Source: Botryllus schlosseri
Taxonomy: Eukaryota
Direction of reading: 5' to 3'
Assembly (NCBI GenBank): GCA_051294905.1
Contig: CM119371.1
Location: 17,176,001 to 17,240,000, forward strand
DNA: 64,000 nucleotides
In this document: positions 18,043-62,300 of the stretch, one piece after another
Layout: every line of letters starts with the position of its first letter
How positions within the stretch are numbered: the stretch's first letter is position 1
Program-made: the position numbers and the translations under genes
Notes under the pieces: generated by a model
Told to the model about the DNA's origin: nothing
What the model saw: only the letters and a program-made list of their open reading frames with translations
The model's database searches: none

Positions 18043-18475
18043 ATTGATTTTTTCTTGTTAGTGTTGCTATTCGTTGATACGCGCTTTTAAGCTTCATAAT
18101 TTCTGTTATGCCTAATGAGTGTTGCTGGTGCGACTCCAAACGTAAGTAGTAGTGTAGATCGCTCGTGACCTGCAATGGTGGCTTATGGGTGCGGTCGCAC
18201 ATCGTATGGAAAACTCGTGGTGGCACATCGTACTTTTTGACCCGCCCTCTCGGTTGCACATCGTAATGCATTCTTATGGGTGCGCTCGAACATCGTACTT
18301 TTAGGCATAGGCGCCGACTTACGAGGTTACGAGGTGGCGCAGCCACCTCGACACCATATTTACGAGGTGGCGGCCACCTCGTAAACGCCCGAGTTATTTA
18401 TGACCCGTAATTTGTAATCAGACGAATCGATGCGACCTCCTTAGAGACATCTTCGTTATTTATACGCGCGTGCAC

Positions 18476-19753
18476 CATGCGCGTAGCCAGGGGGTTCGAA
18501 TCCCCCTGTTTGAAACGCGAAACCCCGTCATTTTGAAATGACCATTTTAACTCCAATATTCAGTAATTCAGTAATTGTGTTATCATTGTTCCGTGCGGCC
18601 AATTTGCGGGAGGCAAGTTTCCAATCAGCGCGAAGAGTCTGTGATGATATCCCGTTGAGATGGTCGCGAAATTAGGCCAGTCATTGCCGTGTGCGTAGCA
18701 ATCGTCGCCAGCCTGATTTATCGCATCTCGAACAAGCCTGATTCCGCTGGTTTGAACAATCGCATCTGGAATAGGCCCAGTTCAAACTATATCATCGTTT
18801 GTTTGCGCAATCGCCTCTGCTTTGGCGGCTTCTGTCTGGTGTGCACGATATCATTGTGTTGATGACTATACGGCATACTCGTATGATAAGCTTGTCAACG
18901 AGTCCGGAAGTGCTGTTAATTAGCGACTCCCTGATCGGTCGTGAACAATTAAATACGCGCGCTTATCAATGAGTCCTACCTCTTATTTAGCGTTGGTGAC
19001 GATTTGCGCAAGTCAAAATGTACGAGTTTATTTGGAATATGCGCTACAATGACGCCGATTTCAGGTGGTTCAAACCTTTCCTCTTTTATAACTGAAGTCT
19101 TATCACAGCTTCTGATGGTTATGTTCAAGTATTAGCGGAAATCAATTACGGATGTACGCACGCGTCGCACATGTTTGCGGACATTCGATGTCATTCAGTT
19201 TCGCGAAGTCACTCTTTAACCACAATCGCTAATCCGCATACACTTAACTGCATTTTATCCAAGCTATCGCCATCGGGAAGTAGGAGCAAAAGCGTGGTAG
19301 GCCCGAGACGCGGTAGTTAGGCTAGCGATATCTTCCGTACTAGGTCTATTGCAGATGCGATTGTTTAGGCCAGCGATGATCTCGTGCGCACCGGGCCTAT
19401 TGCAGATGCGATTATTCAAGCCAGCGGAATTAGGCTTGTAGGTGACGCGATAAATCAGGCTACCAACAATTGCCGAGCGCGGGGCAATGAATGAACTAAT
19501 TTCGCAATTATCTGAGCGAGAAGCCGGGAGATCGTTTCGCGTTACATTGTGCAGTGCAATGCGTACTGACGAATCTCGCTTATTGCCTTTCGTTATTGGC
19601 CGTGCGTAACACTGATAATACGACTGAATTGCAACCGAGTATTACCGTCAGAGCGCTCATTTGAAAAGGGCGGGGTTTCGCCTTTAAGGAGGGGGTATCG
19701 CGCTTCCAAAGGATGGGCTTTCGACCCCCGAAACCCCCTGGCTTCGCGTCTGG
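18476..19753. mobile_element. Nested fold-back MITE-like element
   Basis: CATGCGCGTAGCCAGGGGG / CCCCCTGGCTTCGCGTCTG ends. Internal inverted homology between about 18665-18790 and 19390-19505. Confidence 0.6.
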
Positions 19754-20114
19754 ATGTACTCCAAAAATGCTTCGCGAAGGTAAATCGGGAAATGCACAAC
19801 TGCCGCCAAAATCCCTGTTTTAATCTGCAAACAATTGCCGCGATGCGAGCTTCTCAATGCGAAGCCAGAAACCGCACGAGACAATTGCTGATTAGCTGCG
19901 CGATTTCACGTTTGTAATCATCATTATTGTCGGTTTGAAACCTCATATTCGAGAGTTGTCGTGTGGTAGTTGCGAAGTTGCCATTCCAGTGCGTGGTGTA
20001 TTTCGTTACTCACACGGCGCGTTGATAACATTGATGCAACTTCAAATTCTTCATGACGTAAATTCTGATTTTTGTTCAATGCATTCCGCCTGATGGAATG
20101 CATCGTATACATCG

Positions 20115-20541
20115 CAGAGATGAGCGGATTTGAAATTTCTATGTCCTAATCCAATCCAAATCCGAACCTTCAAATCCAAATCCAAATCCTAATCCATAAC
20201 TTTTTCATATTCAAGTCCATGTCCAATCCTAATCCGATTCCAACTGGAAATTCAGAAAAAATACTAATTTATGCAATGGAGGGATTCGAAAATTTTCTTT
20301 CACAACCAACGATTCACTTGATTCAAGATAACTTAGTAACCATAAGTACATTAATAACTGATCTGAATAAAGTTTGTCGCCATTCGCCACACGACATTTC
20401 AATCTCCCAGAAAATAGTTCAATCCAATCCAAATCCTAATCCGTTCCGGAAAAAATGTCTAATCCAAATCCAATCCAAATCCGACAGAATTTCACAAATC
20501 CTGTTTTTTCAAAACCTAATCCTAATCCATGCTCATCTCTG
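20115..20541. mobile_element. hAT MITE with AATCC repeats
   Basis: TIRs CAGAGATGAGC / GCTCATCTCTG. Perfect TSD ATACATCG. Confidence 0.9.
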
Positions 20542-20944
20542 ATACATCGTCGGACGAATGATCGTACCGTTTTAAGATTCCACTTAGTAACTTGACTGCA
20601 TGGTTTGATAATAATGAGTGCAGAGTCGATATTAAAACGTAACGTAAAACGCAAATGGTTAACGCTGATCAATCAATCAATCAGTGATTGGCATGTAGGA
20701 AAGTGCGTTTTAGTGTGACGATGACGTCATCGACACGGAACAATTATGACGTCACAAGACTTCGCCACCTCGTAAAAAAATAAAAGTCGGCGCCTATGCT
20801 TTCAGGTATAGGCATCTCTCGCATATCGTATTGAAAACTCGTGTTGGCACATCGTACTTTTAGGTATAGGCATCTCTCGCACGTCGTACTTTCGCAAGTC
20901 ATACTTTTGTGTATAGACTGCGTCGGCATGTCGTACTTTCAGCA

Positions 20945-21810
20945 AAAAAGGTGTGAAATAGTTTGCTAAATCTAGGAATCAGTCGCATGGTAAGGTTTTA
21001 GTAACTAGTTTACCACAGAGCCGGCGTAGACGGCGATTCAAATACCAACAATAGCCGCGTTCACATACTAACACTTCGAAAAGGTGTGAACTATTTGTAA
21101 AATCCTACGATCGCTCACAGAATCACTTACAAGGTCACTTACAAGGTAATATTTCGCTCACAGAATCACTTACAAGGTCACTTACAAGGTAATATTTTGG
21201 TAATTAGTTTACCACAGAGCCGACGTAGACGGCGATTCGAATGCCAACAATCGCCGCGTTCACATGCTATCAGTTCAAAAAGGTGTGAAATAGTTTGCTG
21301 ATTCTAGGAATCACTCGCAAGGTAATATTTTGGTAATTAGTTTACCACAGAGCCGGCGTAGACGGCGATTCGAATACCAACAATAGCCGCGTTCACATAG
21401 TAACACTCGAAAAAGGTGTGAAATATTTGTAAAATCTTACGACCACTCACAAGATAACACATCAGAATAGCCATCTCTTGTGGTTTGATGTTACAAAGAT
21501 AGGAATTACGCACAAGTAATATTTTGGTAATTAGTTTGCCACAGAGCCGGCGTAGACGGTGATACCAACAATAGCCGCGCTCACAAACTAACACTTCAAA
21601 AAGGTGTGGAATAGGTTGCAAATCCCACGATCACTCACGAGATAACACCTAAGACATAGCCATCCCTCGCTACTTGTTGTTACATACATTCCAATCGCCA
21701 CAATGTAATATTTTGATAATCGGTATGTCACAGGAACTGGATTTCACTGGTAAAATTTAATAAGTAACGAATAACAGAACCGTCGCAGACGGTGATTCGA
21801 ATACCGACAA
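20945..21810. repeat. Subterminal tandem array (units of about 120-190 bp) of palindrome 1, mirrored at about 26660-27480
   Basis: Recurring AAAAGGTGTGAAATA...TAATTAGTTTACCACAGAGCCGGCGTAGACGGCGATTCGAATACCAACAATAGCCGCGTTCACA. Confidence 0.85.
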
Positions 21811-24800
21811 ATTCTTACTTATTTCTGATCCAACCCTAATCCTCTGTGAAGTTGACGCTTATTCAAAAAGGTGTGAAATAATTGTAAAATCCTGCGTCGC
21901 TGACACGATAATGCATCAGACATAGCGATATAGTTATAGTACGGTGTCGGAATCCATTCGCGAGATGTTCTATAGGTAAATCGAGATAATCCGAAACCAA
22001 ATATTTTGACTTGGTGTAGTGTGAATTGAAATAGGATTTACAAACATGACTACCATCTTTCCCCCCAGTCGCATTTCGATATTATACGCACATTGATTTG
22101 AAACAAGTAACAACTCTATTCACGATCCGGCTTTCCGTTCGTCAAAGAGACATTTTAACATCTTACCATACTCAAAAGAATTATTCACAACATTAATAAG
22201 TGTTCAAAATCTAGTTTTCACTTACTTGATTATATCACAACAACTCGCAAACTTGAATTTATTCATCCCTGCTGTATTCGTATGATCGGTATTTTTTATT
22301 CAATTGTAAAGGTCGTTACTATTCTGAAGACAAAGTATTTACTAGTCGGTGCATATACGACTTGACATGAACATATTATATTTTGAGTATACGAGATTTG
22401 AATGTCTGAACAATAACTGAGAAATAATTTATCACAATTAAATCCGTATATTACAGCGTAAAAGATATTGGAATGTCACCAACTCTGTACAGTCATAGCT
22501 ACTACCACTTTACCTAATTCACCCGACCAACTCGTCATGATCATTCCTGAAATCAACACAAACATGACCACTGACTTGAGTTAACCACAAAACAGCATCA
22601 AGTTTTAAATCCACTTGTAGCTTACGGATTATTTGAATGCTGGTTATTTTTTTGTTGTAATTGAGTGTATGGAAATAGTATTAAGTCTCGACATCTTACC
22701 ATCTTACCATATTCAAAGAGTCAACCACAAAAACATTATCAAGTAAATCCGTTACCCGATCAACTCAAACTGTATCAGTATGAAAAACAGCCAAGCATAC
22801 ACGAGTCCATACAATCACTAAAACCTAAAATCCATAACAAGTTCGCTTGTACCCATATCCCTACGACGCATCATTTTTATTCAACTTGAAGTAGTTACTA
22901 TTCTGTAAGATAAAGGAATTACTACGCGGTATATTCTGCAAGACAAAGTATTTATTACTCGATATATTTTTGTAAGACAAAAGTAATTACTACTCGGTGC
23001 AGGTGACTTGAGATTAACATGATATGTTTGAGTATACGAGATTTGAAAGTCTGACCAACATAGTTCAGAATTCATTTCTTACAATCCAACGCAGGCGTTA
23101 TATCGAAAATTATCATGATGTAAACATAAGGATTGATACATTGCTGCGACATATGTAACAGTTGATCATGACTTGATTATTAAATCATTCGCGTTAATTA
23201 GACCCGGCGTTGTGGTAAAGGTTATTATGACAGCAGCAAACTTTTCAGCACCGTTGTTATTAATTTATTGAGTTGTAAAACTATGCGTGTCTGAAAGGTT
23301 CGTGATTGAAAAATTATTCCACCTTGGTACATATCACTCTGCGTATCGCGGATATCAGAAAATATTTTACAAATGTAATTGTTTCCAGTAACCAAGACTA
23401 AAGATGAAACGACAATATCGGTATTATTACATTGAACAACCAGTACAATTAATAAAATCTATCGTTTGCGATAAACAGCGCTAAAGATGTATTAATTCCA
23501 GTATCCATACATTGAACATCCGAGGCAAAATGCTTTATTATCCCGATTCGCAACGGGTAATTGAAACGACTAAGTGTAGAGTCAGTATATCACAATATCG
23601 TTACTATTGAATCCAGCAATTGATACGATTTATTGTCGGAATTTGTGACAGAAAATTGAAACATACGTACCTTACATAGTGTGAAAATATCACTTTGAGA
23701 ATCGAGTACCGTTCGAAGCTGGCGATCAATTCTTAATCATTTCAGTAACTCTCCATTGTGCGTGCTAAATGTAAAATATCGCGAGGTTATACACTCTAAG
23801 ACTTTGATCATTACAAAAGTAAATTGTGATATATTTGTTAGATGCATCCAATTCAACTAGAAATGTCTAGTGCCCAACACTCGTAATATCGAAAAAGTAC
23901 TTGCTACACTGTTATTTGCTAAACTTGTTTTGCATTGTTCTTCATTTGTAGTATTGATTGAAATTGTTCTTGAACCCTCAAATAATAATTGCCGACATGA
24001 AACCAAGCCGCTGAAAGTCGTTACCATCACGAAGAAACAATGTGTATGATGTTTGTCAAATGTGTTCTATAGTTAGGTGTACTAGAATTATTTGTGTAGC
24101 ACACCGACAAAGAATTCAGAAATTTTTCCGTTGTCATTCGCTAAAGTAAATACCATCACAATACTCAGTCGCTAAAAGACGTTACTTGTATGTGATTGTA
24201 TATTTCATATCCGTCGAGTGACTAAAATTTCTTTGGAGTCCGGTTTAGTGAGTTAATCGCTAGGGGTACAATCACATACAAGTAACGTCTTTTAGCGACT
24301 GAGTATTGTGATGGTATTTACTTTAGCGAATGACAACGGAAAAATTTCTGAATTCTTTGTCGGTGTGTTACACAAATAATTCTAGTACACCTAACTATAG
24401 AACACATTTGACAAACATCATACACATTGTTTCTTCGTGATGGTAACGACTTTCAGTGGCTTGGTTTCATGTCGGCAATTATTATTTTGGGGTTCAAGAA
24501 TAATTTCAATCAATACTACAAATGAACAACAATGCAAAACAAGTTTAGCAAATAACAGTGTAGCAAGTACTTTTTTGATGTTACGAGTGTTGGGCACTAG
24601 ACACTTCTAGTTGAATTGGATGCATCTAACATATATATCACAATTTACTTTTGTAATGATCAAAGTCTTAAAGTGTATAACCTCGCGATATTTTACATTT
24701 AGCACGCACAATGGAGAGTTACTGAAATGATTAAGAATTGATCGCCAGCTTCGAACGGTACTCGATTCTCAAAGTGATATTTTCACACTATGTAAGGTAC

Positions 24801-27800
24801 GTATGTTTCAATTCTCTGTCACAAATTCCGACAATAAATCGTATCAATTGCTGGATTCAATAGTAACGATATTGTGATATACTGACTCTACACTTAGTCG
24901 TTTCAATTACCCGTTGCGAAACGGGATAATAAAGCATTTTGCCTCGGATGTTCAATGTATGGATATACTGGAATTATTACATCTTTAGCGCTGTTTATCG
25001 CAAACGATAGATTTTATTAATTGTACTGGTTGTTCAATGTAATAATACCGATATTGTCGTTTCATCTTTAGTCTTGGTTACTGGAAACAATTACATTTGT
25101 AAAATATTTTCTGATATCCGCGATACGCAGAGTGATATGTATTAAGGTGGAATAATTTTTCAATCACGAACCTTTCAGACACGCATAGTTTTACAACTCA
25201 ATATGTTAATAACAACGGTACTGAAAAGTTTGCTGCTGTCATAATAACCTTTACCACAACGCCGGGTCTAATTAACGCGAATGATTTAATAATCAAGTCA
25301 TGATCAACTGTTACATATGTCGCAGCAATGTATCAATCCTTATGTTTACATCATGATAATTTTCGATATAACGCCTGCGTTGGATTGTAAGAAATGAATT
25401 CTGAACTATGTTGGTCAGACTTTCAAATCTCGTATACTCAAACATATCATGTTAATCTCAAGTCACCTGCACCGAGTAGTAATTACTTTTGTCTTACAAA
25501 AATATATCGAGTAATAAATACTTTGTCTTGCAGAATATACCGCGTAGTAATTCCTTTATCTTACAGAATAGTAACTACTTCAAGTTGAATAAAAATGATG
25601 CGTCGTAGGGATATGAGTACAAGCGAACTTGTTATGGATTTTAGGTTTTAGTGATTGTATGGACTCGTGTATGCTTGGCTGTTTTTCATACTGATACAGT
25701 TTGAGTTGGTCGGGTAACGGATTTACTTGATAATGTTTTTGTGGTTGACTCTTCGAATATGGTAAGATGGTAAGATGTCGAGACTTAATACTATTTCCAT
25801 ACACTCAATTACAACAAAACATAACCAGCATTCAAATAATCCGTAAGCGACAAGTGGATTTAAAACTTGATGCTGTTTTGTGGTTAACTCAAGTCAGTGG
25901 TCATGTTTGTGTTGATTTCAGGAATGATCATGACGAGTTGGTCGGGTGAATTAGGTAAAGTGGTAGTAGCTATGACTGTACAGAGTTGGTGATATTCCAA
26001 TATCTTTTACGCTGTAATATACGGATTCAATTGTGATAAATTATTTCTCAGTTATTGTTCAGACATTCAAATCTCGTATACTCAAAATATAATATGTTCA
26101 TGTCAAGTCGTATATGCACCGACTAGTAAATACTTTGTCTTCAGAATAGTAACGACCTTTACAATTGAATAAAAAATACCGATCATACGAATACAGCAAG
26201 GATGAATAAATTCAAGTTTGCGAGTTGTTGTGATATAATCAAGTAAGTGAAAACTAGATTTTGAACACTTAATAATGTTGTGAATAATTCTTTTGAGTAT
26301 GGTAAGATGTTAAAATGTCTCTTTGACGAACGGAAAGCCGGATCGTGAATAGAGTTGTTACTTGTTTCAAATCAATGTGCGTATAATATCGAAATGCGAC
26401 TGGGGGGAAAGATGGTAGTCATGTTTGTATATCCTATTTCAATTCACACTACACCAAGTCAAAATATTTGGTTTCGGATTATCTCGATTTACCTATAGAA
26501 CATCTCGCGAATGGATTCCGACACCGTACTATAACTATATCGCTATGTCTGATGCATTATCGTGTCAGCGACGCAGGATTTTACAATTATTTCACACCTT
26601 TTTGAATAAGCGTCAACTTCACAGAGGATTAGGGTTGGATCAGAAATAAGTAAGAATTTGTCGGTATTCGAATCACCGTCTGCGACGGTTCTGTTATTCG
26701 TTACTTATTAAATTTTACCAGTGAAATCCAGTTCCTGTGACATACCGATTATCAAAATATTACATTGTGGCGATTGGAATGTATGTAACAACAAGTTGCG
26801 AGGGATGGCTATGTCTTAGGTGTTATCTCGTGAGTGATCGTGGGATTTGCAACCTATTCCACACCTTTTTGAAGTGTTAGTTTGTGAGCGCGGCTATTGT
26901 TGGTATCACCGTCTACGCCGGCTCTGTGGCAAACTAATTACCAAAATATTACTTGTGCGTAATTCCTATCTTTGTAACATCAAACCACAAGAGATGGCTA
27001 TTCTGATGTGTTATCTTGTGAGTGGTCGTAGGATTTTACAAATATTTCACACCTTTTTGGAGTGTTACTATGTGAACGCGGCTATTGTTGGTATTCGAAT
27101 CGCCGTCTACGCCGGCTCTGTGGTAAACTAATTACCAAAATATTACCTTGCGAGTGATTCCTAGAATCAGCAAACTATTTCACACCTTTTTGAAGTGATA
27201 GCATGTGAACGCGGCTATTGTTGGTATTCGAATCGCCGTCTACGTCGGCTCTGTGGTAAACCAATTACCAAAATATTACCTTGTAAGTGATTCAATAAAT
27301 TCTGTGAGCGATCGTAGGATTTTACAAATAGTTCACACCTTTTCGAAGTGTTAGTATGTGAACGCGGCTATTGTTGGTATTTGAATCGCCGTCTACGCCG
27401 GCTCTGTGGTAAACTAAATACCAAAGCCTTACCATGCGACTGATTCCTAAATTTAGCAAACTATTTCACACCTTTTTTGCTGAAAGTACGACATGCCGAC
27501 GCAGTCTATACACAAAAGTATGACATGCGAAAGTACGACGTGCGAGAGATGCCTATACCTAAAAGTACGATGTGCCAACACGAGTTTTCAATACGATATG
27601 CGAGAGATGCCTATACCTAAAAGTACGATGTGCGAGCGCACCCATAAGAACGCATTACGATGTGCGACCGAGAGGGGGGTCAAAAAGTACGATGTGCCAC
27701 CACGAGTTTTCCATACGAGGTGCGACCGCACCCATAAGCCACCATTGCAGGTCACGAGCGATCTATACTACTACTAACGTACTCTGAAATTTGAAATGCG

Positions 27801-46322: not shown

Positions 46323-49300
46323 CCCTAGCAAACGGTGCTTTAAAAGTAGAAACACCATGGGAATCACTGACTCTAGTTCATTGGAGCTGATCTCGCTGTA
46401 GTGACAGTGTCACGCTGCAAAAAGTCGGCACCCGAGACCCGAAGTGGAATGAATGGCGGACTGAAATAAAGAGTGAAGTGAATGTGAACTACTGCGAAGC
46501 GCTTGAAGAAAGATGCATATGTCAACGATACTGATAAGATACAAAAAAGACAATGATACTGAATTGTACAATATCCATGTCGTGATGCACTAAGCCTAAA
46601 AAAGGCTATAAGCTCAACTGAAATGACTTCATTTTATTTTAATAATAACTTGAGCAATAATGAGGAGCATATGAAATCATGGCTGATGAAAAGAATAACG
46701 GTTAAATGTATAGTAAACCAACAATGGTGACCACAACATAAAAATATGTTGGGGCTCGCGAGTTATGCGTTTTGCGTTGGGACCGTTGAATCGCCAATTG
46801 CAATTTCAACTTCAAGCTGAAACTTGAGGTATTTAGGTGGTACTGTAGTTCACAGAAGAAAAATGCTGATCCACTGCAACATGGTGGACAGAAATAATAC
46901 AAAACGATCTGGAATCGCTTAAAACACCGTTGTATTCTGTTTCAGCAACTGGGGGCGGCCGAGGATGAAACTGCAAGCCACGAAACCGAGTCTTCAAATT
47001 CTTCCCAGTCAGGTAGAGTGATAAACACACCCGCAATTTATCTTTCCATGAGATCCGCGAAATTTTGTTTAAACGAACACGCAGAAGTGATCAACGTATA
47101 GGCATGTCTGATGCTCGAGTTCAGGTAGAAGTAATTCCGTAGTGCATGAGTTTTCAAACTAGGAGACGTGACCCCGTCTGTTTTAAATGTAACCCTACAC
47201 AGGAAACATGCCTACGCCGCGGTCGAATAAGTTATAGATCAGGGGTGGCAAATAGTCCCATGAAATCGAAACTACAGGTAAATGTTTATATGCCACGTTG
47301 TAACCATCCGACAGCGGTATGATGATTTCACTCTAGTCCAGAGGTTACCAACCTTTTTTGGCCGTGGCTCAATTACAGGTTTTAAAATGTTCTGTGGCCC
47401 ATCTCTTAGCCTAGAGCAAGAACGGGCAACATACGGCCCGCGACGGGATTTCGTCCGGCCCGCGGACAGTTTCCCGTTTTCTGTCGAGATTACCCATTAC
47501 TCGGTCAGACGTCAAATTTTAGTGACTGTATGTTATTATATACGCGTGAGCTGTGCATAGCGTGTAAGAGTGGAACTCACGCGTAAGTTCGTCGAAGCGA
47601 AATCATGGTATGCATATCCTCAGTTTGTGTGCATATATATCTTGAGTCGGGGTATTTGCCATAAAAATATCAAGGACAAAAATAAACTACATCGTTTCCT
47701 TTCTTGTATCGTATTCATATTATCATTATGATCATTTGCAATGAGGGTCGCTGAGACATTTTCAACTCTAATTCTATCATCAGACCTTCATTTTTCCTTT
47801 ATCCATATGAATTGAATTCGAGGTACCTGGTCACTTTTCACTTACACAATGATGGCAGCACCACTCACCCACCGTAAAAGTTATTATGTACTCAGGATGC
47901 TGTGTATATTGGTTTGAGTGCGCAACATTTGCTCCTATGTACAATAGGTGCCTTCAAAAACGATATATTTTCTCAAATCGTACTGGCTACTTCTTAAAAC
48001 AGCTAAATAGTATTTACAGTAGGCATCACTATAATAAATAATTGAAGAATTAGTCACCGTAAATACTATTTCATTCATAATCCAAATTTTTCGAAGGCAG
48101 CAACTCGGCCTTCGCTGGATGGAATTGAACCAAATTTGGGGAACATCGCTTCTATGGACAACCTAACACTTTCATGGGGTGAACATAAGATTTTAAATTT
48201 TTTTGTTATTCATTTTTATTCATTTGGTGTGTAGGCTTAAATTGGGTAACCTAACAATTTTATCAAGTAACCAGTACGATTAGGGAAAAAAGTCATTTTT
48301 GAATACCCCTAATGTACAATGATAAAGTTATGCGTGGTGATTATCTAACAAATGCGTTAGCAAATGTCTACGAAGAATTCTCGGTATGTAATCTAAGACT
48401 TAGATGATCGCCACCACTGCACAGCTACATGGGTCGTATTCTTATCCACCGCACCAGCTTAGTTGGATACCCACGTTGGACCCGACATAATCCAACAGAC
48501 ATAGCCTGTAAGTCTATATTAATTCTCCTTGGTACCAAGTTGGCTTACCTGATGGGTACTAACTTTAACTCCATGTGGGTCCCGTGTGGTAGGCCTACCC
48601 AAGTAGTCGTAAGACTTGCATTATCGGCATTTTACTATGTACTCAATCCTAATGAATTGAAATCTTGGTAAATTTGGAGTACCGGGCTTATCGAACGCCT
48701 TGAAATCTTTATTAGTGATTGCACCGTGTGTTAATTGATCAGAGAGAAGCAGAAATGGCGGCGCCTGTATGATGATGCTGTTCTCAAATCCACATTTCAC
48801 TCATCATTATCGGCTTGATCTGGCTTTCAAGTGACATTGATGTCGTTAAAATACATTCATTAAATACGATTTATTCCTTGTATATGTCAATACCTGGGCG
48901 AATAATGTATCGATTCAGCAATCCGGCCGTCATGTTCCTAATTTTCCTACATCCGGCCCGCCGACTGGAGAAGTTGCCAGTAGTTATATAGATGGCTCGT
49001 GATGTGGCAGGGGTTCTTATGGCGGGGTGGCGATTCGCCTGGAAACCCGGGGTGGCGATTCGCCTCTTATCTCTTATGGCGGGGCCGCGATTCGCCATGT
49101 GTTCTTATGGATGCGGTCGTGATTCGCCTTTTCGGATATAGGCTGCGGCGGTGAATCGTATTGAAATACTCGTGGTCGTGACTCGCCTTTTTTGCTATAG
49201 GCTGCGGCGGTGATGCGCCATGTATTCTTACGGGATCTGTGGTGATTCGCCATGTGTTCTTATGGGTGCGGTCGTGAATCGTACTTTTAGGTATAGACAT

Positions 49301-51917
49301 CTCTCGCATATCATACTTTCGGGTATAGACATCACTAAACAGGAAATTCACTAATCCGCAGTGCATTGCGCGATTTTGAAAACCAGATGTTGGCGGTTTT
49401 GTGTGACCCACTAAATACGTCCGTTTTGGAAATTCGGAGCGCGCACTATCGTATCGATTATTCCGCTAATCCGGTAAGTACTATTACATACAGGAGTATT
49501 CAGTATTCAGCAACGACACGAAAAGCGACCAACAAATAACCGCACTCGTAAATTAACACCTAAAAAAGTGTAAAATAGATTGCAAATCCCGCGATCGCTA
49601 ACAAGATAATGTCTCGGGTATAACCATTTAGTGACTTGGTGTTAAAGACATACCGATCGCTCACAAGGTAATATTTCGGTAATTAGTTTGTCACAGAGCC
49701 GTCGCAGACGGTGATTCGAAAACCAGCAATTTGACACTTTCTGGTGGTCGCTATATGTTTTGACACTTCGAACAGTGGCTGACTTTAGTTGCACGCTAAG
49801 AATTATGAGAATATTCAATCAATGTGTCAATTTGTCAACTTGAAATGAAACTTACTACACAACTCAAGTTGATTCGTATCTGAATGTGTTAATTCGGTAC
49901 AATTCTAATTAATTTGAGAAATCTTTTGATTCGACCGTAACCCGAATATTACTGACGCCGACTTTCAGCCGCATCGAATTATTCACACATTCCGCGCCGC
50001 TGTTTTCGCACTTATAGAATCAATACCAACTATAACTCTACAAGAATCAAGAATCACAAGTATGTGCATTATACAGTTATTGTCTTTATCAACACGAAAT
50101 CAAACTCTTAACAAAAACACACATCTTCATGAAAACCATCGAGTCCTTATCATCAAAAATGTTATAGTGCGGCGTCGGAATCCATTCGCGGAGTGTACTA
50201 AAGTTAAATCCAGATAATCCAAAATGAAATATTTGGACTTTGCCATAGTGTGAATTGAAATAGGATTGACAAACATGACTACCAACTTTGATCCAGTCAC
50301 ATTTCAAGATGATACTTTGAAACAAGTAATGTAACATTACAACTCTATTCACGATCCTGCTTTCCGTTTGTCAAAGAGATATTTTAACATCTTACCATAC
50401 TCAAAAGAATTATTCACAACATTAACAATTGTTAAAAATCTAGTTTCACTTACTTGATTATATCACTACAACTCACAAATTTACATTAATTCATCCTGGT
50501 TGGATTCGTATGCTCTATCTTTTTATTCAATTGTAAAGGTTGTTACTATTCTGAAGACAAAGTATTTACTAATCGGCGCATATACGATTTGACTTGGACA
50601 TATTATATTTTGAGTATACGAGATTTCAATGTCTGAACAATAACTGAGAATTAATTTATCTCAATTAAATCCGTATATTACAGCGTAAAAGATATTGGGG
50701 TGTCAGCAACTCTGTACGGTCGTAGTTACAACCACATTAACTAATCTACCCAGGCAACTCGTCATGATCATTCCTGAAATCAACACAAACACGACCACTG
50801 ACTTGAGTTAACCGCGAAACAGCATCAAGTTTTAAATCCGCTTGCAGCTGACGGATTATTCGAATGCATCGATGGAGAATATTATTGAACTCGTCGGTAT
50901 TGTTACTTCAACGAATTACACCGACTGCGAAAGTTAATATCGAATGGTAAGACTTGATCACATATTTGTTGATCACAGACATGACAAAAAAACATTACCG
51001 AGATTTTATAAACTAGTCATATTACTCTACACATCTATCAATATCAAAATGCGAGTCATCCAATTTTTCTACTAAAGTAACATTGCACTTTCGGATTCGA
51101 ATTCGGTATAGTCATACAAATTGTATTAAATCCAACATCAAAACAAAAGGAATTTTTTTAGTTTATTGAAATCAAATCATTCGTCTTCGACTTGTGCTTT
51201 TCTAGATTACCCGCGACAATTCGTTTCGAGTGAGTTGTAACCAAAGGCAAGATATCTTTGTGTCCACAGATATGGAAGATGAATATAGCTAACACAATCA
51301 CGAATCGACGTTTCAGAGTATTTCACGGGTGTAATAAACTTGTTAGTGTCACCTATCTAAAAGTACGCACGCGTTCGATTTCCATACCGACTGTTGCGAT
51401 GTTTAGGATTCACTTACAATAACCACGGGTGAGGATTTAACATCAATGTCGTTACTGTCGGAATTTGCGACAGAGAATTGAAACATATGCACTTTACAGA
51501 GTGTGAAAATATCACTTTGAGTATCGAGTACCGCTCGAAGCTAGCGATCAATTCTTAATCATTTCAGTAACTCCCCATTGTGCGTGCTAAATGCAAAATA
51601 TCGCGAGGTTATACACTCTAAGACTTTGATTATTGTAAAAGTAAATTGTGATATGTTTGTTAGATGCGTCCAATTCAACTAGAAGTGTCTAGTACCCAAC
51701 ACTCGTAATATCAAAAAAGTACTTGCTACACTGTTATTTGCTAAACGTGTTTTGCATTGTTGTTCATTTCTAGTATTGATTGAAGTTGTTTTTGAACCCT
51801 CAAATAATAATTCCCGACATGAAACTAAGCCGCCGAAAGTCGTTAACATCACAAAGAAACAGTTTGCACGATGTTTACTAAATGTGTCCTATAGTTAGGT
51901 GTACTGGAATTATTTGT

Positions 51918-51920
<3 letters not shown>

Positions 51921-51950
<30 letters not shown>
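51921..51950. repeat. (AC)15 microsatellite, mirrored as (GT)15 at 59345-59374
   Basis: Direct reading of the sequence. Confidence 0.95.
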
Positions 51951-51952
<2 letters not shown>

Positions 51953-53739
51953 TCAGAGAAATTGGAAATTTTTCCGTTGTCATTCGCTAAAGTAAATGTC
52001 ATCACAATACTCTGTCACTAAAAGACGTTACTTGGACGTGCTTGAATTCTAGACATAGTTCTGATTTACCCAACACAAGACCCATGGACAACCCTAGTTT
52101 CAACCGAACACAGATATCCAAAATATCACACACTTCGCTATTCCTAAAGCACAAACACACGATACAAAATAATACTTGTTGTGTTGTTGCGGCATCATCA
52201 CTCAACAATATCACCGTCAATACAAATGATGTTTATGTGTAACATGCTATTGATTTGAACCACACCCACCTGACAGAAGAGGATTTACTCAATCTTTACA
52301 AAATGGATATTGACCAACATCACACCACCGGATTGTATCTGTTTCGCTGGATACGAGTTATGTTAGTTTAACAGTAAACAAATTTCACCCTCTTGGATTA
52401 TGAACTCAATGCGTCAGCAGTCATTCAATATTTTGTTTGTGTCAACTAGTTACTTTGTATGTTACCCCACAACTCTTACAAAAGTACGAAGGATATTAAC
52501 ACAAAGTAATTAACTTTACTCGATATTCTCGCATTACGAAACTAAAGAATGGGTGGTTAGACTCTACAAACTGTTTCGATATCACAAGACCTTTATTGTC
52601 TGAATGGGTGTTCATGTGTCTTAAGAACCAAATAGTTCAACACAGCACTAGTACCAACAGAAACATCAGAGTTGGTCACACAAAAGTTTGTATGCGTGCA
52701 GTATGCGAATACCATGTGTAAGTCCAGCACAATTGTGGTATCCATCCGGTTTTAGTTAACACAATTTACGACACCGAGGTCACCTCATCTTTCGTAAGAC
52801 AACAAACCAACCAAGGTTTCAGGATATGTCCGTGTCATAGCAATAAATCAGCTACTCCAACAACAGAGTACATATGTTTTCTAGTTACGGTGCTTACATC
52901 TTACACACAAATCAATCTACTTTGCTAACAAAAAGTGCTGGGTCATCAAGTGATTACCCTAACAACAAAACAGCTAAACGTACTATCATACAAAATGGCC
53001 GTTATAGTCACCAACGGTACATGGTACAAGTAACAAGTCTCGAGAATCCAGTTATTGAAAAAACATGAAAGTGTTTCTCCTGCGCCAAGTCGTTATGTTG
53101 ACGAAAGCGTATATTGTAATATCATGATCGATTTGCATTCGTTGGTCGCAAAATGTCACTACTCTAAATAATTATTTTTCACTCAAACACAAACGCATAC
53201 TTGTCGCCAATCGTTTTTCATCAAGCACGAGTTCAAGAAACCTGCTACGACATGAATTCCGATTTAGTTTTACAAATATTTTATAATTGTTTTTAGTAAC
53301 ACTATATCAATGTCATCAAGTTGAGTGTTTACGATATTAGTGTGTAGGTGTGTGTGTCATACTTGGAGGATCCGTATTACAATTGACTCGAATTGACTAA
53401 ATGTAAGAAGGGTTGAAATGTTTCGAATCGATTCATAAGTGGTCTTCGTTGTGGTTTTCGTCGGGTCATACAGCACGAACTAACTGTAGACTCCTCTCTG
53501 TTGTACAGCTACTCGGTAATCGATATGCATTAACATGTAAACAACGATCTTGTTTCGTCACACCAAAAATATGTTCACTGTCGCGATACGCCGCACAAGA
53601 CGTGCATAGCCTTTTCACACTCGTAATAGTATACCAACGTCAAGCAATAACGTTTAACAAGACCAACGACACTGAACCCACGACGTTTACCTATGTAAAA
53701 TTACCACTTTCACTTGCCAGTCCATCGTTTACCTGACTA

Positions 53740-54425
53740 AACATATTATTTTCCTTTGGAGATCTGCCGTTTACCCAGAGTAAGAAACCATTTTCCCTCG
53801 TAAATATTTTTTTTCCTCGGCTAACAAACCTTTTTTCACTTGGAAATATATTTTTCTCTGGGTAAGAAACCATTTTCATTGGGAAATCTATTTTTTTTCC
53901 CTGGGTAACAAACCTTTTTTCACTTGGAAATATATTTTTTTCCCGGATAACAAACCTTTTTCACTTGGAAATATATTTTCCCCCGGATAACAAACCTTTT
54001 TCACTTGGAAATATATTTTTTCCCTGGGTAACAAACCTTTTTCACTTGGACATATATTTTTTCTCTGGGTAACAAACCTTTTTCACTTGGAAATATATTT
54101 TTTCTTTGAGCAACAAACCTTTTTCACTTGGAAATATATTTTTATCCTACAGCAACAAACCATTTTCACTTGGTAGTCCACCGTTTACCTGAGTAAAAAT
54201 ATCATTTTCCTTTGGAGATCTGGCGTTTACCCATGCTAACAAACCATTTTCACTTGGAAAAATACTTTTACCTAGAGTAACTAATCATTTTCTTTTGGAA
54301 ATATATTTTCTCCCAGGGTAACAAATCCTTTTCGCTTGGAAAACTGTCATTCACCTGAGTACCAATACCGTTTTCACTTGGAAATCTATCTTTTCGCTAG
54401 GTAATAATACCATTTTCGTTTTGAA
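53740..54425. repeat. Minisatellite with a unit of about 39 bp, mirrored at about 56870-57555
   Basis: Unit CTGGGTAACAAACCTTTTTCACTTGGAAATATATTTTTT, degenerate at the edges. Confidence 0.92.
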
Positions 54426-54569
54426 AACTGACACACACACCGGACAATTTGATATTTTTTGTATATTGTTACAACAAACGGTGACAAAATATACACCAGC
54501 AACGACTCCATACATTTGTGTAATCAAATATTCAGTTGCTCTGATGCATCCATCAAAATAATTGGTTAC

Positions 54570-55680
54570 TCACATACAATAACAATGTGCTGTTGTACAT
54601 CGACATGTATGTTTTCGGAATTGGTGAATAAAGGGGTTTCCGATATGTCCGTGATGTCCGGGTTCGTGCTTTAGATTTTCCAGAGTCAAAATGTCTGAAT
54701 AAAACACCTCCTCGACTTTGGTAGCTGGTTGATACACGGATAATGGTGTTCGGAAAACGGATGAATTTATGTTCCCCATCGCGCCGACAACTCCGGGTTA
54801 CTTGTGAGTTTCCTCAGGTCTGTTTACTATATTGTGTCTTTACTGATCAATACATGTCGCTCCAGTCAGCTGAAACCGGATCACTAATACGAGAAAGTGT
54901 GTGGGGGCCTGATCCGGATATTCACTCATGAACCAACGACCAATATTCAAGTAAACATGTTACAGACCGTGTTTTGTCTCCATGAAAAATACCAATGCAT
55001 ACACCATCACATCAAGTACGTCACGATTGTTCACAAGTATTCACGTAGACGAGGTGTACATACAATTTGTCGGTGTACAAACATCATGGAAAACAAATTC
55101 ATGTTCTCAAGTCTCATCATGCGACGACTCTGTACATTCAATGTGGGCATAGATGACACACGGCATGATACAATTGACAGCGCATTATGCATGTTGATAT
55201 ATTCTCAGTCAAATATGCGAACCATACACAATCATATACCCTGATTTTCGCTGAATATCCACAACACCAACAAATCTGTACATTTCTTTTCCCTCAACCT
55301 TGACGATAGAGTTGTCATCCCAATGTACCAGTCGAGTGTATGGTTCATCTGGTGTAAAATCCAAATCAAATGTCACCAAGGTATCGTTTTTCATTTTTAA
55401 TATTTCCACTGCCGCATCTTGTCTGTGTCGTAAAACCACGGCGTGGGGCCAGAGGAATCTATGGCCAGTTACGCGTAGTCCCATATTTACTCGTGGATAT
55501 GGTTAGGTTACGACAACGTTTTCTCAATGGTCTGTGTGGGTGCACCGTTTCAATACGTAGCTGGATCAACTAGACCAAAAGTCTCCAACCGCGTTTTATA
55601 ACGACCTGTAGAATTACGAGATAGCACCCTCTTGCGGTGTGATTAACACGAAATAAGCCTTCAACTCGCAGAGACACACC
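54570..55680 (-). pseudogene. Possible decayed ORF of unknown product crossing the spacer/arm boundary of palindrome 2
   Basis: ORFs 55209-55484 and 54570-54779 are in the same minus frame (starts 705 bp apart). The intervening and upstream translation looks protein-like with scattered stops. Confidence 0.3.
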
Positions 55681-58600
55681 TTGGATTACATTATCTAATC
55701 GTAATCGAACTCGAGATTCGCACACACACAGAGTCCCTGTTTACGATTTCAATCCGGAGTCACTGCTCACGATGTTTATCTGTAGTCGTTATGTGGGAGT
55801 AGCGACATCTCACATATTCATCGCGTGAAAGATTGATAACGATGGTGATCGCCAAATACATTACACCAGGTGAAACACTGCGGTCTCAGCAAAAAAAAAA
55901 ATTCGCAGGTTAGGACGAACAATACGCGGAGGGATTGAGCGAGTTACGCAACCCGATTGTGTCGAAGTCTGGATCACGATACAAGTCTACCTGAGAATCC
56001 GAACAATCTTGCAAAATCAAGGTGTGAATCCGTGAAAGGGCTGTACTCGGGTGAGATTGATTTTTCACAAGTTGGGTGGAGGTCGGTTCAAACTAAGACC
56101 ATGTTACGTCCAAATATGGCTGCTTGTCTCTCTCAAAGTCATCTATGCCCACATTGAATGTACAGAGTCGTCGCATGATGAGACTTGAGAACATGAATTT
56201 GTTTTCCATGATGTTGGTACACCGACAAATTGTATGTACACCTCGTCTACGTGAATACTTGTGAACAATCGTGACGTACTTGATGTGATGGTGTATGCAT
56301 TGGTATTTTTCATGGAGACAAAACACGGTCTGTAACATGTTTACTTGAATATTGGTCGTTGGTTCATGAGTGAATATCCGGATCAGGCCCCCACACACTT
56401 TCTCGTATTAGTGATCCGGTTTCAGCTGACTGGAGCGACATGTATTGATCAGTAAAGACACAATATAGTAAACAGACCTGAGGAAACTCACAAGTAACCC
56501 GGAGTTGTCGGCGCGATGGGGAACATAAATTCATCCGTTTTCCGAACACCATTATCCGTGTATCAACCAGCTACCAAAGTCGAGGAGGTGTTTTATTCAG
56601 ACATTTTGACTCTGGAAAATCTAAAGCACGAACCCGGACATCACGGACATATCGGAAACCCCTTTATTCACCAATTCCGAAAACATACATGTCGATGTAC
56701 AACAGCACATTGTTATTGTATGTGAGTAACCAATTATTTTGATGGATGCATCAGAGCAACTGAATATTTGATTACACAAATGTATGGAGTCGTTGCTGGT
56801 GTATATTTTGTCACCGTTTGTTGTAACAATATACAAAAAATATCAAATTGTCCGGTGTGTGTGTCAGTTTTCAAAACGAAAATGGTATTATTACCTAGCG
56901 AAAAGATAGATTTCCAAGTGAAAACGGTATTGGTACTCAGGTGAATGACAGTTTTCCAAGCGAAAAGGATTTGTTACCCAGGGAGAAAATATATTTCCAA
57001 AAGAAAATGATTAGTTACTCTAGGTAAAAGTATTTTTCCAAGTGAAAATGGTTTGTTAGCATGGGTAAACGCCAGATCTCCAAAGGAAAATGATATTTTT
57101 ACTCAGGTAAACGGTGGACTACCAAGTGAAAATGGTTTGTTGCTGTAGGATAAAAATATATTTCCAAGTGAAAAAGGTTTGTTGCTCAAAGAAAAAATAT
57201 ATTTCCAAGTGAAAAAGGTTTGTTACCCAGAGAAAAAATATATGTCCAAGTGAAAAAGGTTTGTTACCCAGGGAAAAAATATATTTCCAAGTGAAAAAGG
57301 TTTGTTATCCGGGGAAAAATATATTTCCAAGTGAAAAAGGTTTGTTATCCGGGAAAAAAATATATTTCCAAGTGAAAAAAGGTTTGTTACCCAGGGAAAA
57401 AAAATAGATTTCCCAATGAAAATGGTTTCTTACCCAGAGAAAAATATATTTCCAAGTGAAAAAAGGTTTGTTAGCCGAGGAAAAAAAATATTTACGAGGG
57501 AAAATGGTTTCTTACTCTGGGTAAACGGCAGATCTCCAAAGGAAAATAATATGTTTAGTCAGGTAAACGATGGACTGGCAAGTGAAAGTGGTAATTTTAC
57601 ATAGGTAAACGTCGTGGGTTCAGTGTCGTTGGTCTTGTTAAACGTTATTGCTTGACGTTGGTATACTATTACGAGTGTGAAAAGGCTATGCACGTCTTGT
57701 GCGGCGTATCGCGACAGTGAACATATTTTTGGTGTGACGAAACAAGATCGTTGTTTACATGTTAATGCATATCGATTACCGAGTAGCTGTACAACAGAGA
57801 GGAGTCTACAGTTAGTTCGTGCTGTATGACCCGACGAAAACCACAACGAAGACCACTTATGAATCGATTCGAAACATTTCAACCCTTCTTACATTTAGTC
57901 AATTCGAGTCAATTGTAATACGGATCCTCCAAGTATGACACACACACCTACACACTAATATCGTAAACACTCAACTTGATGACATTGATATAGTGTTACT
58001 AAAAACAATTATAAAATATTTGTAAAACTAAATCGGAATTCATGTCGTAGCAGGTTTCTTGAACTCGTGCTTGATGAAAAACGATTGGCGACAAGTATGC
58101 GTTTGTGTTTGAGTGAAAAATAATTATTTAGAGTAGTGACATTTTGCGACCAACGAATGCAAATCGATCATGATATTACAATATACGCTTTCGTCAACAT
58201 AACGACTTGGCGCAGGAGAAACACTTTCATGTTTTTTCAATAACTGGATTCTCGAGACTTGTTACTTGTACCATGTACCGTTGGTGACTATAACGGCCAT
58301 TTTGTATGATAGTACGTTTAGCTGTTTTGTTGTTAGGGTAATCACTTGATGACCCAGCACTTTTTGTTAGCAAAGTAGATTGATTTGTGTGTAAGATGTA
58401 AGCACCGTAACTAGAAAACATATGTACTCTGTTGTTGGAGTAGCTGATTTATTGCTATGACACGGACATATCCTGAAACCTTGGTTGGTTTGTTGTCTTA
58501 CGAAAGATGAGGTGACCTCGGTGTCGTAAATTGTGTTAACTAAAACCGGATGGATACCACAATTGTGCTGGACTTACACATGGTATTCGCATACTGCACG

Positions 58601-59342
58601 CATACAAACTTTTGTGTAACCAACTCTGATGTTTCTGTTGGTACTAGTGCTGTGTTGAACTATTTGGTTCTTAAGACACATGAACACCCATTCAGACAAT
58701 AAAGGTCTTGTGATATCGAAACAGTTTGTAGAGTCTAACCACCCATTCTTTAGTTTCGTAATGCGAGAATATCGAGTAAAGGTAATTACTTTGTGTTAAT
58801 ATCCTTCGTACTTTTGTAAGAGTTGTGGGGTAACATACAAAGTAACTAGTTGACACAAACAAAATATTGAATGACTGCTGACGCATTGAGTTCATAATCC
58901 AAGAGGGTGAAATTTGTTTACTGTTAAACTAACATAACTCGTATCCAGCGAAACAGATACAATCCGGTGGTGTGATGTTGGTCAATATCCATTTTGTAAA
59001 GATTGAGTAAATCCTCTTCTGTCAGGTGGGTGTGGTTCAAATCAATAGCATGTTACACATAAACATCATTTGTATTGACGGTGATATTGTTGAGTGATGA
59101 TGCCGCAACAACACAACAAGTATTATTTTGTATCGTGTGTTTGTGCTTTAGGAATAGCGAAGTGTGTGATATTTTGGATATCTGTGTTCGGTTGAAACTA
59201 GGGTTGTCCATGGGTCTTGTGTTGGGTAAATCAGAACTATGTCTAGAATTCAAGCACGTCCAAGTAACGTCTTTTAGTGACAGAGTATTGTGATGACATT
59301 TACTTTAGCGAATGACAACGGAAAAATTTCCAATTTCTCTGA

Positions 59343-59377
<35 letters not shown>

Positions 59378-62300
59378 ACAAATAATTCCAGTACACCTAA
59401 CTATAGGACACATTTAGTAAACATCGTGCAAACTGTTTCTTTGTGATGTTAACGACTTTCGGCGGCTTAGTTTCATGTCGGGAATTATTATTTGAGGGTT
59501 CAAAAACAACTTCAATCAATACTAGAAATGAACAACAATGCAAAACACGTTTAGCAAATAACAGTGTAGCAAGTACTTTTTTGATATTACGAGTGTTGGG
59601 TACTAGACACTTCTAGTTGAATTGGACGCATCTAACAAACATATCACAATTTACTTTTACAATAATCAAAGTCTTAGAGTGTATAACCTCGCGATATTTT
59701 GCATTTAGCACGCACAATGGGGAGTTACTGAAATGATTAAGAATTGATCGCTAGCTTCGAGCGGTACTCGATACTCAAAGTGATATTTTCACACTCTGTA
59801 AAGTGCATATGTTTCAATTCTCTGTCGCAAATTCCGACAGTAACGACATTGATGTTAAATCCTCACCCGTGGTTATTGTAAGTGAATCCTAAACATCGCA
59901 ACAGTCGGTATGGAAATCGAACGCGTGCGTACTTTTAGATAGGTGACACTAACAAGTTTATTACACCCGTGAAATACTCTGAAACGTCGATTCGTGATTG
60001 TGTTAGCTATATTCATCTTCCATATCTGTGGACACAAAGATATCTTTGCCTTTGCCTACAACTCACTCGAAACGAATTGTCGCGGGTAATCTAGAAAAGC
60101 ACAAGTCGAAGACGAATGATTTGATTTCAATAAACTAAAAAAATTCCTTTTGTTTTGATGTTGGATTTAATACAATTTGTATGACTATACCGAATTCGAA
60201 TCCGAAAGTGCAATGTTACTTTAGTAGAAAAATTGGATGACTCGCATTTTGATATTGATAGATGTGTAGAGTAATATGACTAGTTTATAAAATCTCGGTA
60301 ATGTTTTTTTGTCATGTCTGTGATCAACAAATATGTGATCAAGTCTTACCATTCGATATTAACTTTCGCAGTCGGTGTAATTCGTTGAAGTAACAATACC
60401 GACGAGTTCAATAATATTCTCCATCGATGCATTCGAATAATCCGTCAGCTGCAAGCGGATTTAAAACTTGATGCTGTTTCGCGGTTAACTCAAGTCAGTG
60501 GTCGTGTTTGTGTTGATTTCAGGAATGATCATGACGAGTTGCCTGGGTAGATTAGTTAATGTGGTTGTAACTACGACCGTACAGAGTTGCTGACACCCCA
60601 ATATCTTTTACGCTGTAATATACGGATTTAATTGAGATAAATTAATTCTCAGTTATTGTTCAGACATTGAAATCTCGTATACTCAAAATATAATATGTCC
60701 AAGTCAAATCGTATATGCGCCGATTAGTAAATACTTTGTCTTCAGAATAGTAACAACCTTTACAATTGAATAAAAAGATAGAGCATACGAATACAACCAG
60801 GATGAATTAATGTAAATTTGTGAGTTGTAGTGATATAATCAAGTAAGTGAAACTAGATTTTTAACAATTGTTAATGTTGTGAATAATTCTTTTGAGTATG
60901 GTAAGATGTTAAAATATCTCTTTGACAAACGGAAAGCAGGATCGTGAATAGAGTTGTAATGTTACATTACTTGTTTCAAAGTATCATCTTGAAATGTGAC
61001 TGGATCAAAGTTGGTAGTCATGTTTGTCAATCCTATTTCAATTCACACTATGGCAAAGTCCAAATATTTCATTTTGGATTATCTGGATTTAACTTTAGTA
61101 CACTCCGCGAATGGATTCCGACGCCGCACTATAACATTTTTGATGATAAGGACTCGATGGTTTTCATGAAGATGTGTGTTTTTGTTAAGAGTTTGATTTC
61201 GTGTTGATAAAGACAATAACTGTATAATGCACATACTTGTGATTCTTGATTCTTGTAGAGTTATAGTTGGTATTGATTCTATAAGTGCGAAAACAGCGGC
61301 GCGGAATGTGTGAATAATTCGATGCGGCTGAAAGTCGGCGTCAGTAATATTCGGGTTACGGTCGAATCAAAAGATTTCTCAAATTAATTAGAATTGTACC
61401 GAATTAACACATTCAGATACGAATCAACTTGAGTTGTGTAGTAAGTTTCATTTCAAGTTGACAAATTGACACATTGATTGAATATTCTCATAATTCTTAG
61501 CGTGCAACTAAAGTCAGCCACTGTTCGAAGTGTCAAAACATATAGCGACCACCAGAAAGTGTCAAATTGCTGGTTTTCGAATCACCGTCTGCGACGGCTC
61601 TGTGACAAACTAATTACCGAAATATTACCTTGTGAGCGATCGGTATGTCTTTAACACCAAGTCACTAAATGGTTATACCCGAGACATTATCTTGTTAGCG
61701 ATCGCGGGATTTGCAATCTATTTTACACTTTTTTAGGTGTTAATTTACGAGTGCGGTTATTTGTTGGTCGCTTTTCGTGTCGTTGCTGAATACTGAATAC
61801 TCCTGTATGTAATAGTACTTACCGGATTAGCGGAATAATCGATACGATAGTGCGCGCTCCGAATTTCCAAACTGGACGTATTTAGTGGGTCACACAAAAC
61901 CGCCAACATCTGGTTTTCAAAATCGCACAATGCACTGCGGATTAGTGAATTTCCTGTTTAGTGATGTCTATACCCGAAAGTATGATATGCGAGAGATGTC
62001 TATACCTAAAAGTACGATTCACGACCGCACCCATAAGAACACATGGCGAATCACCACAGATCCCGTAAGAATACATGGCGCATCACCGCCGCAGCCTATA
62101 GCAAAAAAGGCGAGTCACGACCACGAGTATTTCAATACGATTCACCGCCGCAGCCTATATCCGAAAAGGCGAATCACGACCGCATCCATAAGAACACATG
62201 GCGAATCGCGGCCCCGCCATAAGAGATAAGAGGCGAATCGCCACCCCGGGTTTCCAGGCGAATCGCCACCCCGCCATAAGAACCCCTGCCACATCACGAG

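Follow-up and report, generated by a model that had tools for sequence, protein, structure and literature searches.

How two large palindromes with the same ends can each carry nearly identical arms while differing markedly from one another, and how they come to fold back at different distances from their termini, is the question raised by a 64,000-nucleotide stretch of Botryllus schlosseri DNA (assembly GCA_051294905.1, contig CM119371.1, positions 17,176,001 to 17,240,000; the whole stretch is referred to here as the window). The window is repeat-rich, with 40% G+C, and contains twenty-one open reading frames (ORFs) of at least 100 amino acids and none above 200; it reads as animal DNA. Self-comparison of the window revealed two giant inverted repeats, described here as elements 1 and 2 (Table 1), of which 98% and 93%, respectively, is inverted repeat. 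An original prediction, made from the sequence, had described two fold-back palindromes and interpreted their arms as regenerated from one end; the observation was partly confirmed and the interpretation partly supported. The best explanation of the whole, and one that is somewhat favoured here, is that both are non-autonomous offshoots of Polinton/Maverick elements whose arms are equalised in replication, element 1 being a shortened derivative.

This explanation is carried by the manner in which the arms pair. Blocks 2 and 3, two of three blocks shared by the elements, were aligned across all four arms, giving 1,253 ungapped columns: 1,114 were constant, 120 grouped the arms by element, none grouped them by side or crosswise and nineteen were private to one arm. 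In a tree of the left and right arms of the two elements, the arms joined by element (bootstrap 100). Differences between the elements had been claimed to be far more frequent than those within them, and this was borne out in these blocks (9.5-11.4% as against 0-2.2%); over whole arms, divergence was 1.37% (48/3507) for element 1 and 0.19% (12/6179) for element 2. The terminal 225 bp of the arms are also related between the elements (64%), and the site pattern of this terminal block was fifty-five by element and none by side. Each of the seven indels in blocks 2 and 3 has its mirror image in the opposite arm, including a 24-base difference at an (AC)15 tract whose length is the same in the left and right arms of element 2. 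Between the two arms of an element, its private modules differ at 11/988, 2/584 and 0/421 positions, and a 41-bp tandem array in the inner arm of element 2 (53780-54417), whose units are 76% alike to each other, nevertheless differs between arms at only 2 of 638 positions. From the site patterns, the mirrored indels and the within-element match of modules and array, it follows that every change separating the two lineages was copied into both arms, in register. One arm is therefore remade from the other, given that 120 of the 139 variable columns group by element and none by side. Helper-driven replication before insertion was probably the occasion. The pairing by element and the mirroring of indels and modules support regeneration of one arm from the other, for which template switching or a panhandle would be the route; the nested fold points that formed part of the same proposal are not supported.

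Both palindromes are real insertions with Polinton/Maverick ends. PMC8097293 gives the Maverick signature as (AGT)2//(ACT)2 or (AG)3//(CT)3 ends with 6-bp duplications, and terminal inverted repeats (TIRs) of 46-1,447 bp for intact vertebrate elements. In the window, the (AGT)2//(ACT)2 motif is present at all four ends, with duplicated target sites of 6 bp flanking both elements, which are independent insertions with different duplications; their TIRs, at 3,509 and 6,179 bp, are a further Polinton feature, far above the reported range in length. A 24-base motif from the ends has four occurrences in the window, one at each end of each element, and was absent from all of 100 shuffles. Element 1 had been placed from about 20800; its start was corrected to 18145, which is 2.6 kb to the left of the apparent palindrome and behind a nested transposon. 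The 99.8% identity of the element 2 arms might suggest an assembly or long-read fold-back artefact. This is hardly credible, however, as distinct target duplications flank both elements, the centres of 66 and 980 bp are unique, a nested insertion with its own duplication is present in one arm and the arms of element 1 have diverged by 1.37%.

These TIRs are long and internally repetitive, with arrays of 133/188-, 33- and 41-bp units inside the arms. Subterminal and internal tandem repeats of this kind resemble those of Foldback/Galileo TIRs and, together with the lack of any detected Polinton gene remnant, could point to a long-TIR foldback element from a different superfamily, moving by cut and paste and unrelated to Polintons. 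Such an origin is improbable, as the AGTAGT..ACTACT ends and 6-bp duplications found at both elements are the Maverick motif. Target duplications of Foldback/Galileo-type elements are 7-11 bp in length, in contrast to the 6-bp duplications and Maverick-type ends seen here. Genes for polymerase, integrase, ATPase, protease and capsid are absent from both elements, in which the longest stop-to-stop frame is 132 amino acids. A scan of fifty of the sixty-one frames of at least 55 amino acids (two that begin in flanking sequence were excluded, as were five from the 41-bp array, three entering the mirror arm and one leaving element 1) gave no PHROGs match and one Pfam match below the cut-off, and no Rfam match was found in the window.

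The differences that do exist between arms were examined for the history of the elements after insertion. In blocks 2 and 3, each of the eighteen differences between the arms of element 1 is private to a single arm, the other retaining the element 2 state. Thirty-nine mutation events in the inner arm of element 1 are evenly distributed (Kolmogorov-Smirnov p = 0.42), with 10, 3, 5, 5, 5 and 11 events per successive sixth and no thinning towards the fold, and the 2.5-kb insertion, like a surplus of 46 repeat bases, is confined to the left arm. Such a pattern is consistent with arms that were identical when the element inserted and accumulated differences afterwards. With 0.19% divergence, element 2 is the young copy, and element 1, with its one-arm insertion and 1.37% divergence, is older (Fisher p = 6e-12 for the difference in divergence). 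Host processes were considered as an alternative, by which gene conversion or break repair within the element equalises the arms and palindrome instability removed the centre of element 1 after insertion. It has been proposed, in the accessible part of PMC3573991 on Galileo, that long, close inverted repeats attract conversion and TIR extension, and the age of element 1 would have allowed time enough for deletion. The 2.5-kb insertion, the 46 repeat bases and 48 substitutions nevertheless persist in one arm, and divergence does not fall towards the fold, leaving host processes a possible but rather unlikely explanation. Among the thirteen differences between the arms of element 2, three lie within ten bases (51240-51249 / 60047-60056; two adjacent substitutions and a 1-bp indel), and another substitution doublet is located at 49423-49424.

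The three shared blocks were found, as predicted, in one order and orientation, and they are mirrored in both right arms. Block 1 lies within a zone of 133/188-bp repeats, of which several units match one stretch. The arms had been described as collinear from the terminus; this holds within the shared blocks only, as unrelated modules lie between them and 49740-50160 is unmatched in element 1. The modules 22641-23629 and 50868-51451, which occupy the same slot, are likewise unrelated (local score 24; shuffles mean 23.3, maximum 30). No arm piece matches the rest of the window (E < 0.001), and the blocks are therefore not separate repeats that landed in both elements, which rules out independent repeat insertions. 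Beyond block 3, the arm of element 2 was said to run for about 3.1 kb more, and measurement gave 3,123 bp (52035-55157).

Further members of the family were sought among contigs of public runs aligned to 48900-53650, a 4.75-kb section of one arm outside the 41-bp array and the loop. Matching contigs numbered 92,367 of 23,782,245 in run X1, 5,709 of 4,240,129 in X17, 857 of 28,758,917 in X19 and 622 of 9,427,027 in X5, and all thirty bins of the section were covered in all four runs. The organism labels of X19 and X5 differ from that of X1, which may be the window's own sample. These counts point to a high copy number for the family, of which elements 1 and 2 represent two sub-lineages, about 10% apart and with swapped modules. 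An X19 contig bridges block 2 and the element 2 module (50755-50972, two differences) and an X5 contig bridges this module and block 3 (51165-51486), so that other copies, too, have the block-module arrangement of element 2. Position 52034 is crossed by one X5 contig, whose short side has 30 letters, one under the bridging rule. Among the loose ends listed, thirty-two in X1 and two in X19 lie upstream of 52567; these suggest that block 3 is followed by a further variable module, so that homology may stop at a module boundary adjoining the fold. The motif at the end of block 3 had no matches in metagenome contigs. Seawater and other metagenome runs hold 27-38% of the words, which is no evidence of habitat.

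These data bear on the proposal that the two elements belong to a nested copy-back series of one template, each member with its own fold point, as in copy-back defective viral genomes. The order of the shared blocks from the terminus, the centres at 3.5 and 6.2 kb from the end and the pairing of arms by element would all be expected of such a series. A shorter form should also be a collinear subset of a longer one with a mappable rejoin point, whereas a 989-bp module and the 90-bp centre of element 1 are unmatched in element 2. Unrelated modules lie between the blocks, the loose ends at 52567 indicate that other members reach the inner arm of element 2 from different upstream sequence, and the centre of element 2 carries a conserved ORF. 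The idea of one template folded at different points was consequently not upheld, as the fold of element 1 could not be mapped onto element 2 (the suggested test for microhomology thus has no break point to use), the arms are mosaic and the centre of element 2 is ORF-bearing; a nested series is quite unlikely.

Element 1 had been reported to turn around just after AAAGACGTTACTTG. Homology with element 2 in fact stops at 24188 and is followed by twelve paired bases and then by a 66-bp spacer. The last twelve arm bases and the spacer are not in element 2: the ninety central bases gave no significant match to it (score 26, reached by 14 of 100 shuffles). By eye, a 16-base part of the centre of element 1 resembles the end of the loop ORF, but this likeness was discounted, as the best match of the centre to element 2 fell within the shuffle range.

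The loop of element 2 encodes a putative orphan protein of 91 amino acids (P0001). Three of three candidate relatives are full-length at 91 amino acids and align without gaps, at 95, 75 and 70% identity. The relatives' clusters contain six sequences, five of them on contigs 965-1,192 bp long, which is close to the 980 bp of the loop; short-read assembly that collapses the arms and leaves the loop as a unit would give contigs of this kind. The protein belongs to no Pfam or PHROGs family and falls in one 50% cluster only. It had no usable match in Atlas (low recognition value 1732), no longer relatives among 403 candidates and no confirmed match in viral contigs (51 pattern matches), and its AlphaFold model is not usable (mean pLDDT, the predicted local distance difference test score, 34). 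The conserved ORF points to a fixed family loop rather than an arbitrary turn, and element 2 looks like a standard member with such an ORF-bearing loop, to which element 1 is the exception.

The preferred reading of element 1 is that of a derivative shortened through an almost symmetrical loss of its centre. If it arose from a longer form, approximately 3 kb per arm and the loop were lost, leaving an asymmetry of 66 bp. Simple arithmetic gives a chance of about 2-4% that two breakpoints, if uniform and independent, lie as close to symmetry as 66 bp, and the loss was therefore probably guided by structure. A switch of the polymerase from the template to the displaced strand yields exactly the product seen in element 1, and copy-back is a good candidate for its short centre. 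Cutting or slippage at a chromosomal hairpin, or a later central deletion, could give the same sequence shape. A smaller loop renders a chromosomal palindrome less stable, and host-driven loss would have taken the loop from 1 kb down to 66 bp, towards the less stable form; for this reason there is a slight leaning towards a fork-coupled template switch (copy-back) over later chromosomal deletion. A tentative, less probable extension is that element 1 is an integrated second-order copy-back product, a defective form of a Polinton satellite, which would have arisen through a strand switch by the helper polymerase at 3.5 kb from the end, with both ends kept.

Taken as non-autonomous Polinton/Maverick offshoots, both elements would depend on the protein-primed polymerase and integrase of a putative helper acting in trans. 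In a free replicating phase, the displaced single strand would fold into a long panhandle, or the polymerase would switch onto the displaced strand. One arm would template the other before integration, such that each new copy inserts with matching arms, and after insertion the arms would drift apart in the manner of the long terminal repeats (LTRs) of a provirus. Element 1 would be a derivative shortened by the almost symmetrical loss of the loop and inner arms. Given the Polinton-type ends, a route through a panhandle or strand displacement is plausible. The replication model proposed for Polintons from bioinformatics involves a single-stranded, racket-like intermediate (PMC4196379), and adenovirus panhandles are a precedent in protein-primed replicons (PMC9863843).

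Several points weigh against equalisation in replication and against a derived element 1. Only two copies were compared, and equalisation before insertion and occasional gene conversion afterwards would leave patterns that sequence alone cannot separate. The 2-4% estimate presumes uniform and independent breakpoints, and cruciform cutting at the centre also gives symmetry. The derived status of element 1 would rest on the loop ORF, whose relatives might lie in autonomous elements. No helper was found among viral and metagenome contigs: the terminal motif had no matches in the former, and its 16-base form matched fifty-eight loci in the latter, all of them attributable to chance and none resembling the window any further. 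The public runs, the contigs of which are short, gave 66 joints and 2,204 loose ends; the 15 joints and 24 loose ends listed include no change of strand, and hence no fold point in another copy.

Polinton/Maverick elements, as described in the accessible parts of PMC8097293 and, for the anole, PMC3014272, share the ends, the 6-bp duplication and TIRs with the elements described here, and the 13 kb of element 2 is near their 12.7-24.6 kb. They differ from these elements, which lack core ORFs and possess inverted repeats of 3.5 and 6.2 kb rather than 46-1,447 bp. Some butterfly polintons lack polB and some have gene-bearing TIRs of 2 kb (bioRxiv 10.1101/2025.02.07.637071, in the portion available); these resemble the present elements in being mobile without a polymerase of their own and in their enlarged TIRs, yet they retain core genes. 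Galileo/Foldback elements of Drosophila, for which conversion and TIR extension have been proposed and TIR identity within a copy is 98-100%, are similar in their long, internally repetitive TIRs, within-copy identity, TIR extension recruiting internal sequence and chimeric subfamilies. Galileo differs in that it is a cut-and-paste element of the P superfamily with other ends, TIRs of hundreds of bases and a proposed role for host repair (accessible text of PMC3573991, for both comparisons). The same paper cites a 2007 review for the finding that inverted repeats of Polintons have expanded.

Subgenomic molecules of phage phi29 have been attributed to template switching (Murthy 1998, as cited in the available part of PMC4974454), and like the elements described here they are shortened products of a protein-primed linear replicon that retain a genome end. 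The phi29 products are transient, unintegrated, direct copies of the parental end, whereas the present elements are integrated, long-lived, mosaic and 10% diverged. Palindromic phi29 derivatives arise in vitro and hairpin derivatives occur in yeast killer plasmids. Copy-back defective genomes of RNA viruses show the same copying of one end onto the other, helper dependence and a panhandle; unlike these, the elements of the window are integrated DNA, with no nested series of break points seen and with a conserved loop in the longer form. The non-autonomous zebrafish element Polinton-2N1_DR of Repbase is said to be largely TIR; if so, a mainly-TIR architecture is already on record and the novelty of the present elements drops accordingly. 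No paper on wholly palindromic Polinton-ended elements was found in the accessible literature, a body of text that does not cover the founding Polinton papers or Repbase; the text consulted of 10.1101/2024.01.15.575659, PMC9341512, PMC6431247 and PMC5499653 likewise contained nothing about such an architecture. Gene-depleted Polintons and enlarged TIRs are already in print. The present analysis adds a site-pattern test on two diverged copies, corrected limits for element 1 and a shortened copy that makes copy-back testable.

Table 1. Positions in the window of elements 1 and 2, their arms, shared blocks, private modules and centres
Feature	Position	Strand	Remarks
Element 1 (palindromic, AGTAGT..ACTACT ends)	18145..27775	.	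9,631 bp; 7,130 bp if the nested insertion and the duplication belonging to it are left out
Target-site duplication AACGTA, element 1, left copy	18139..18144	.	
Target-site duplication AACGTA, element 1, right copy	27776..27781	.	
Element 1 left arm, outer piece (terminus and subterminal repeats)	18145..18305	+	95% to 27609-27780, opposite strand
Nested transposon, element 1 left arm only	18306..20798	.	2,493 bp; single empty site in right arm
Element 1 inner left arm	20807..24200	+	43 substitutions in 3,347 columns against right arm
Shared block 1	21564..21827	+	Corresponds to 49528-49743; 173/214 aligned columns, 81%, gapped
Shared block 2	21933..22640	+	Corresponds to 50161-50867; 86.5%
Module private to element 1, in both arms	22641..23629	+	989 bp; degenerate copies of block 2 pieces
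Shared block 3	23630..24188	+	Corresponds to 51452-52034; 87%
Additional bases in the arm of element 1, lacking in element 2 at this place	24189..24200	+	12 bases; pair with 24267-24278
Spacer at element 1 fold	24201..24266	.	66 bp; no match in element 2 or rest of window
Element 1 right arm	24267..27775	-	3,509 bp, uninterrupted
Target-site duplication GTTGCC, element 2, left copy	48973..48978	.	
Element 2 (palindromic, AGTAGT..ACTACT ends)	48979..62317	.	
Element 2 left arm	48979..55157	+	6,179 bp; 12 substitutions and one 1-bp indel against right arm
Module private to element 2	49740..50160	+	Both arms identical; no counterpart in element 1
Module private to element 2, in slot of element 1's 22641-23629	50868..51451	+	Junctions bridged by contigs of other runs
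Element 2 inner arm, absent from element 1	52035..55157	+	3,123 bp
Unique loop of element 2	55158..56137	.	980 bp
Orphan ORF P0001 in loop	55209..55484	-	91 amino acids; full length conserved
Element 2 right arm	56138..62317	-	
Target-site duplication GTTGCC, element 2, right copy	62318..62323	.	

The nested transposon in the left arm of element 1, which we take to be hAT-like, possesses a 15-bp terminal inverted repeat beginning CATAGGCG and an 8-bp duplication (CTTTTAGG / CTTTCAGG at 18298-18305 and 20799-20806). A second element (18476-19752) lies inside it; its terminal inverted repeats are degenerate and 19 bp long, and it encloses a pair of inverted segments (18650-18820 / 19351-19521, 76%). 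The module private to element 1 contains a 33-bp tandem repeat and degenerate copies of parts of block 2 (22974-23085 against 22327-22438, 79%; 22690-22730 against 22149-22190, 81%), all of which are mirrored in the right arm. An older inverted match (39875-40745 / 48640-48978, 85-87%) stops exactly at the left boundary of element 2, which for this reason seems to have landed inside another repeat; a 261-bp imperfect palindrome (40298-40558) is close to the 39875-40745 copy. Elsewhere in the window, a degenerate telomere-like GGGTTA array (42983-43132) adjoins a 180-bp tandem repeat (42519-42973), two-copy tandem repeats of 162 bp (16152-16475) and 198 bp (37210-37592) are present, and the longest ORF (200 amino acids, 38403-39005) lies outside both elements.

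A high-copy family with multi-kilobase arms that are reset to identity would make the panhandle/racket model of Polinton replication testable from genomes alone. The model predicts that arm divergence tracks insertion age, that nested insertions acquired before a jump are found in both arms and that refolded copies recur at different sites. Insertions could then be dated from the divergence of their arms, in the way that LTRs are used. The loop ORF is a small orphan protein retained by an otherwise gene-less element. Were element 1 indeed a second-order copy-back product, copies would be born with equal arms that serve as an insertion clock, rare refolded copies would mark polymerase jumps and the family would be a fossil record of Polinton strand-displacement replication.

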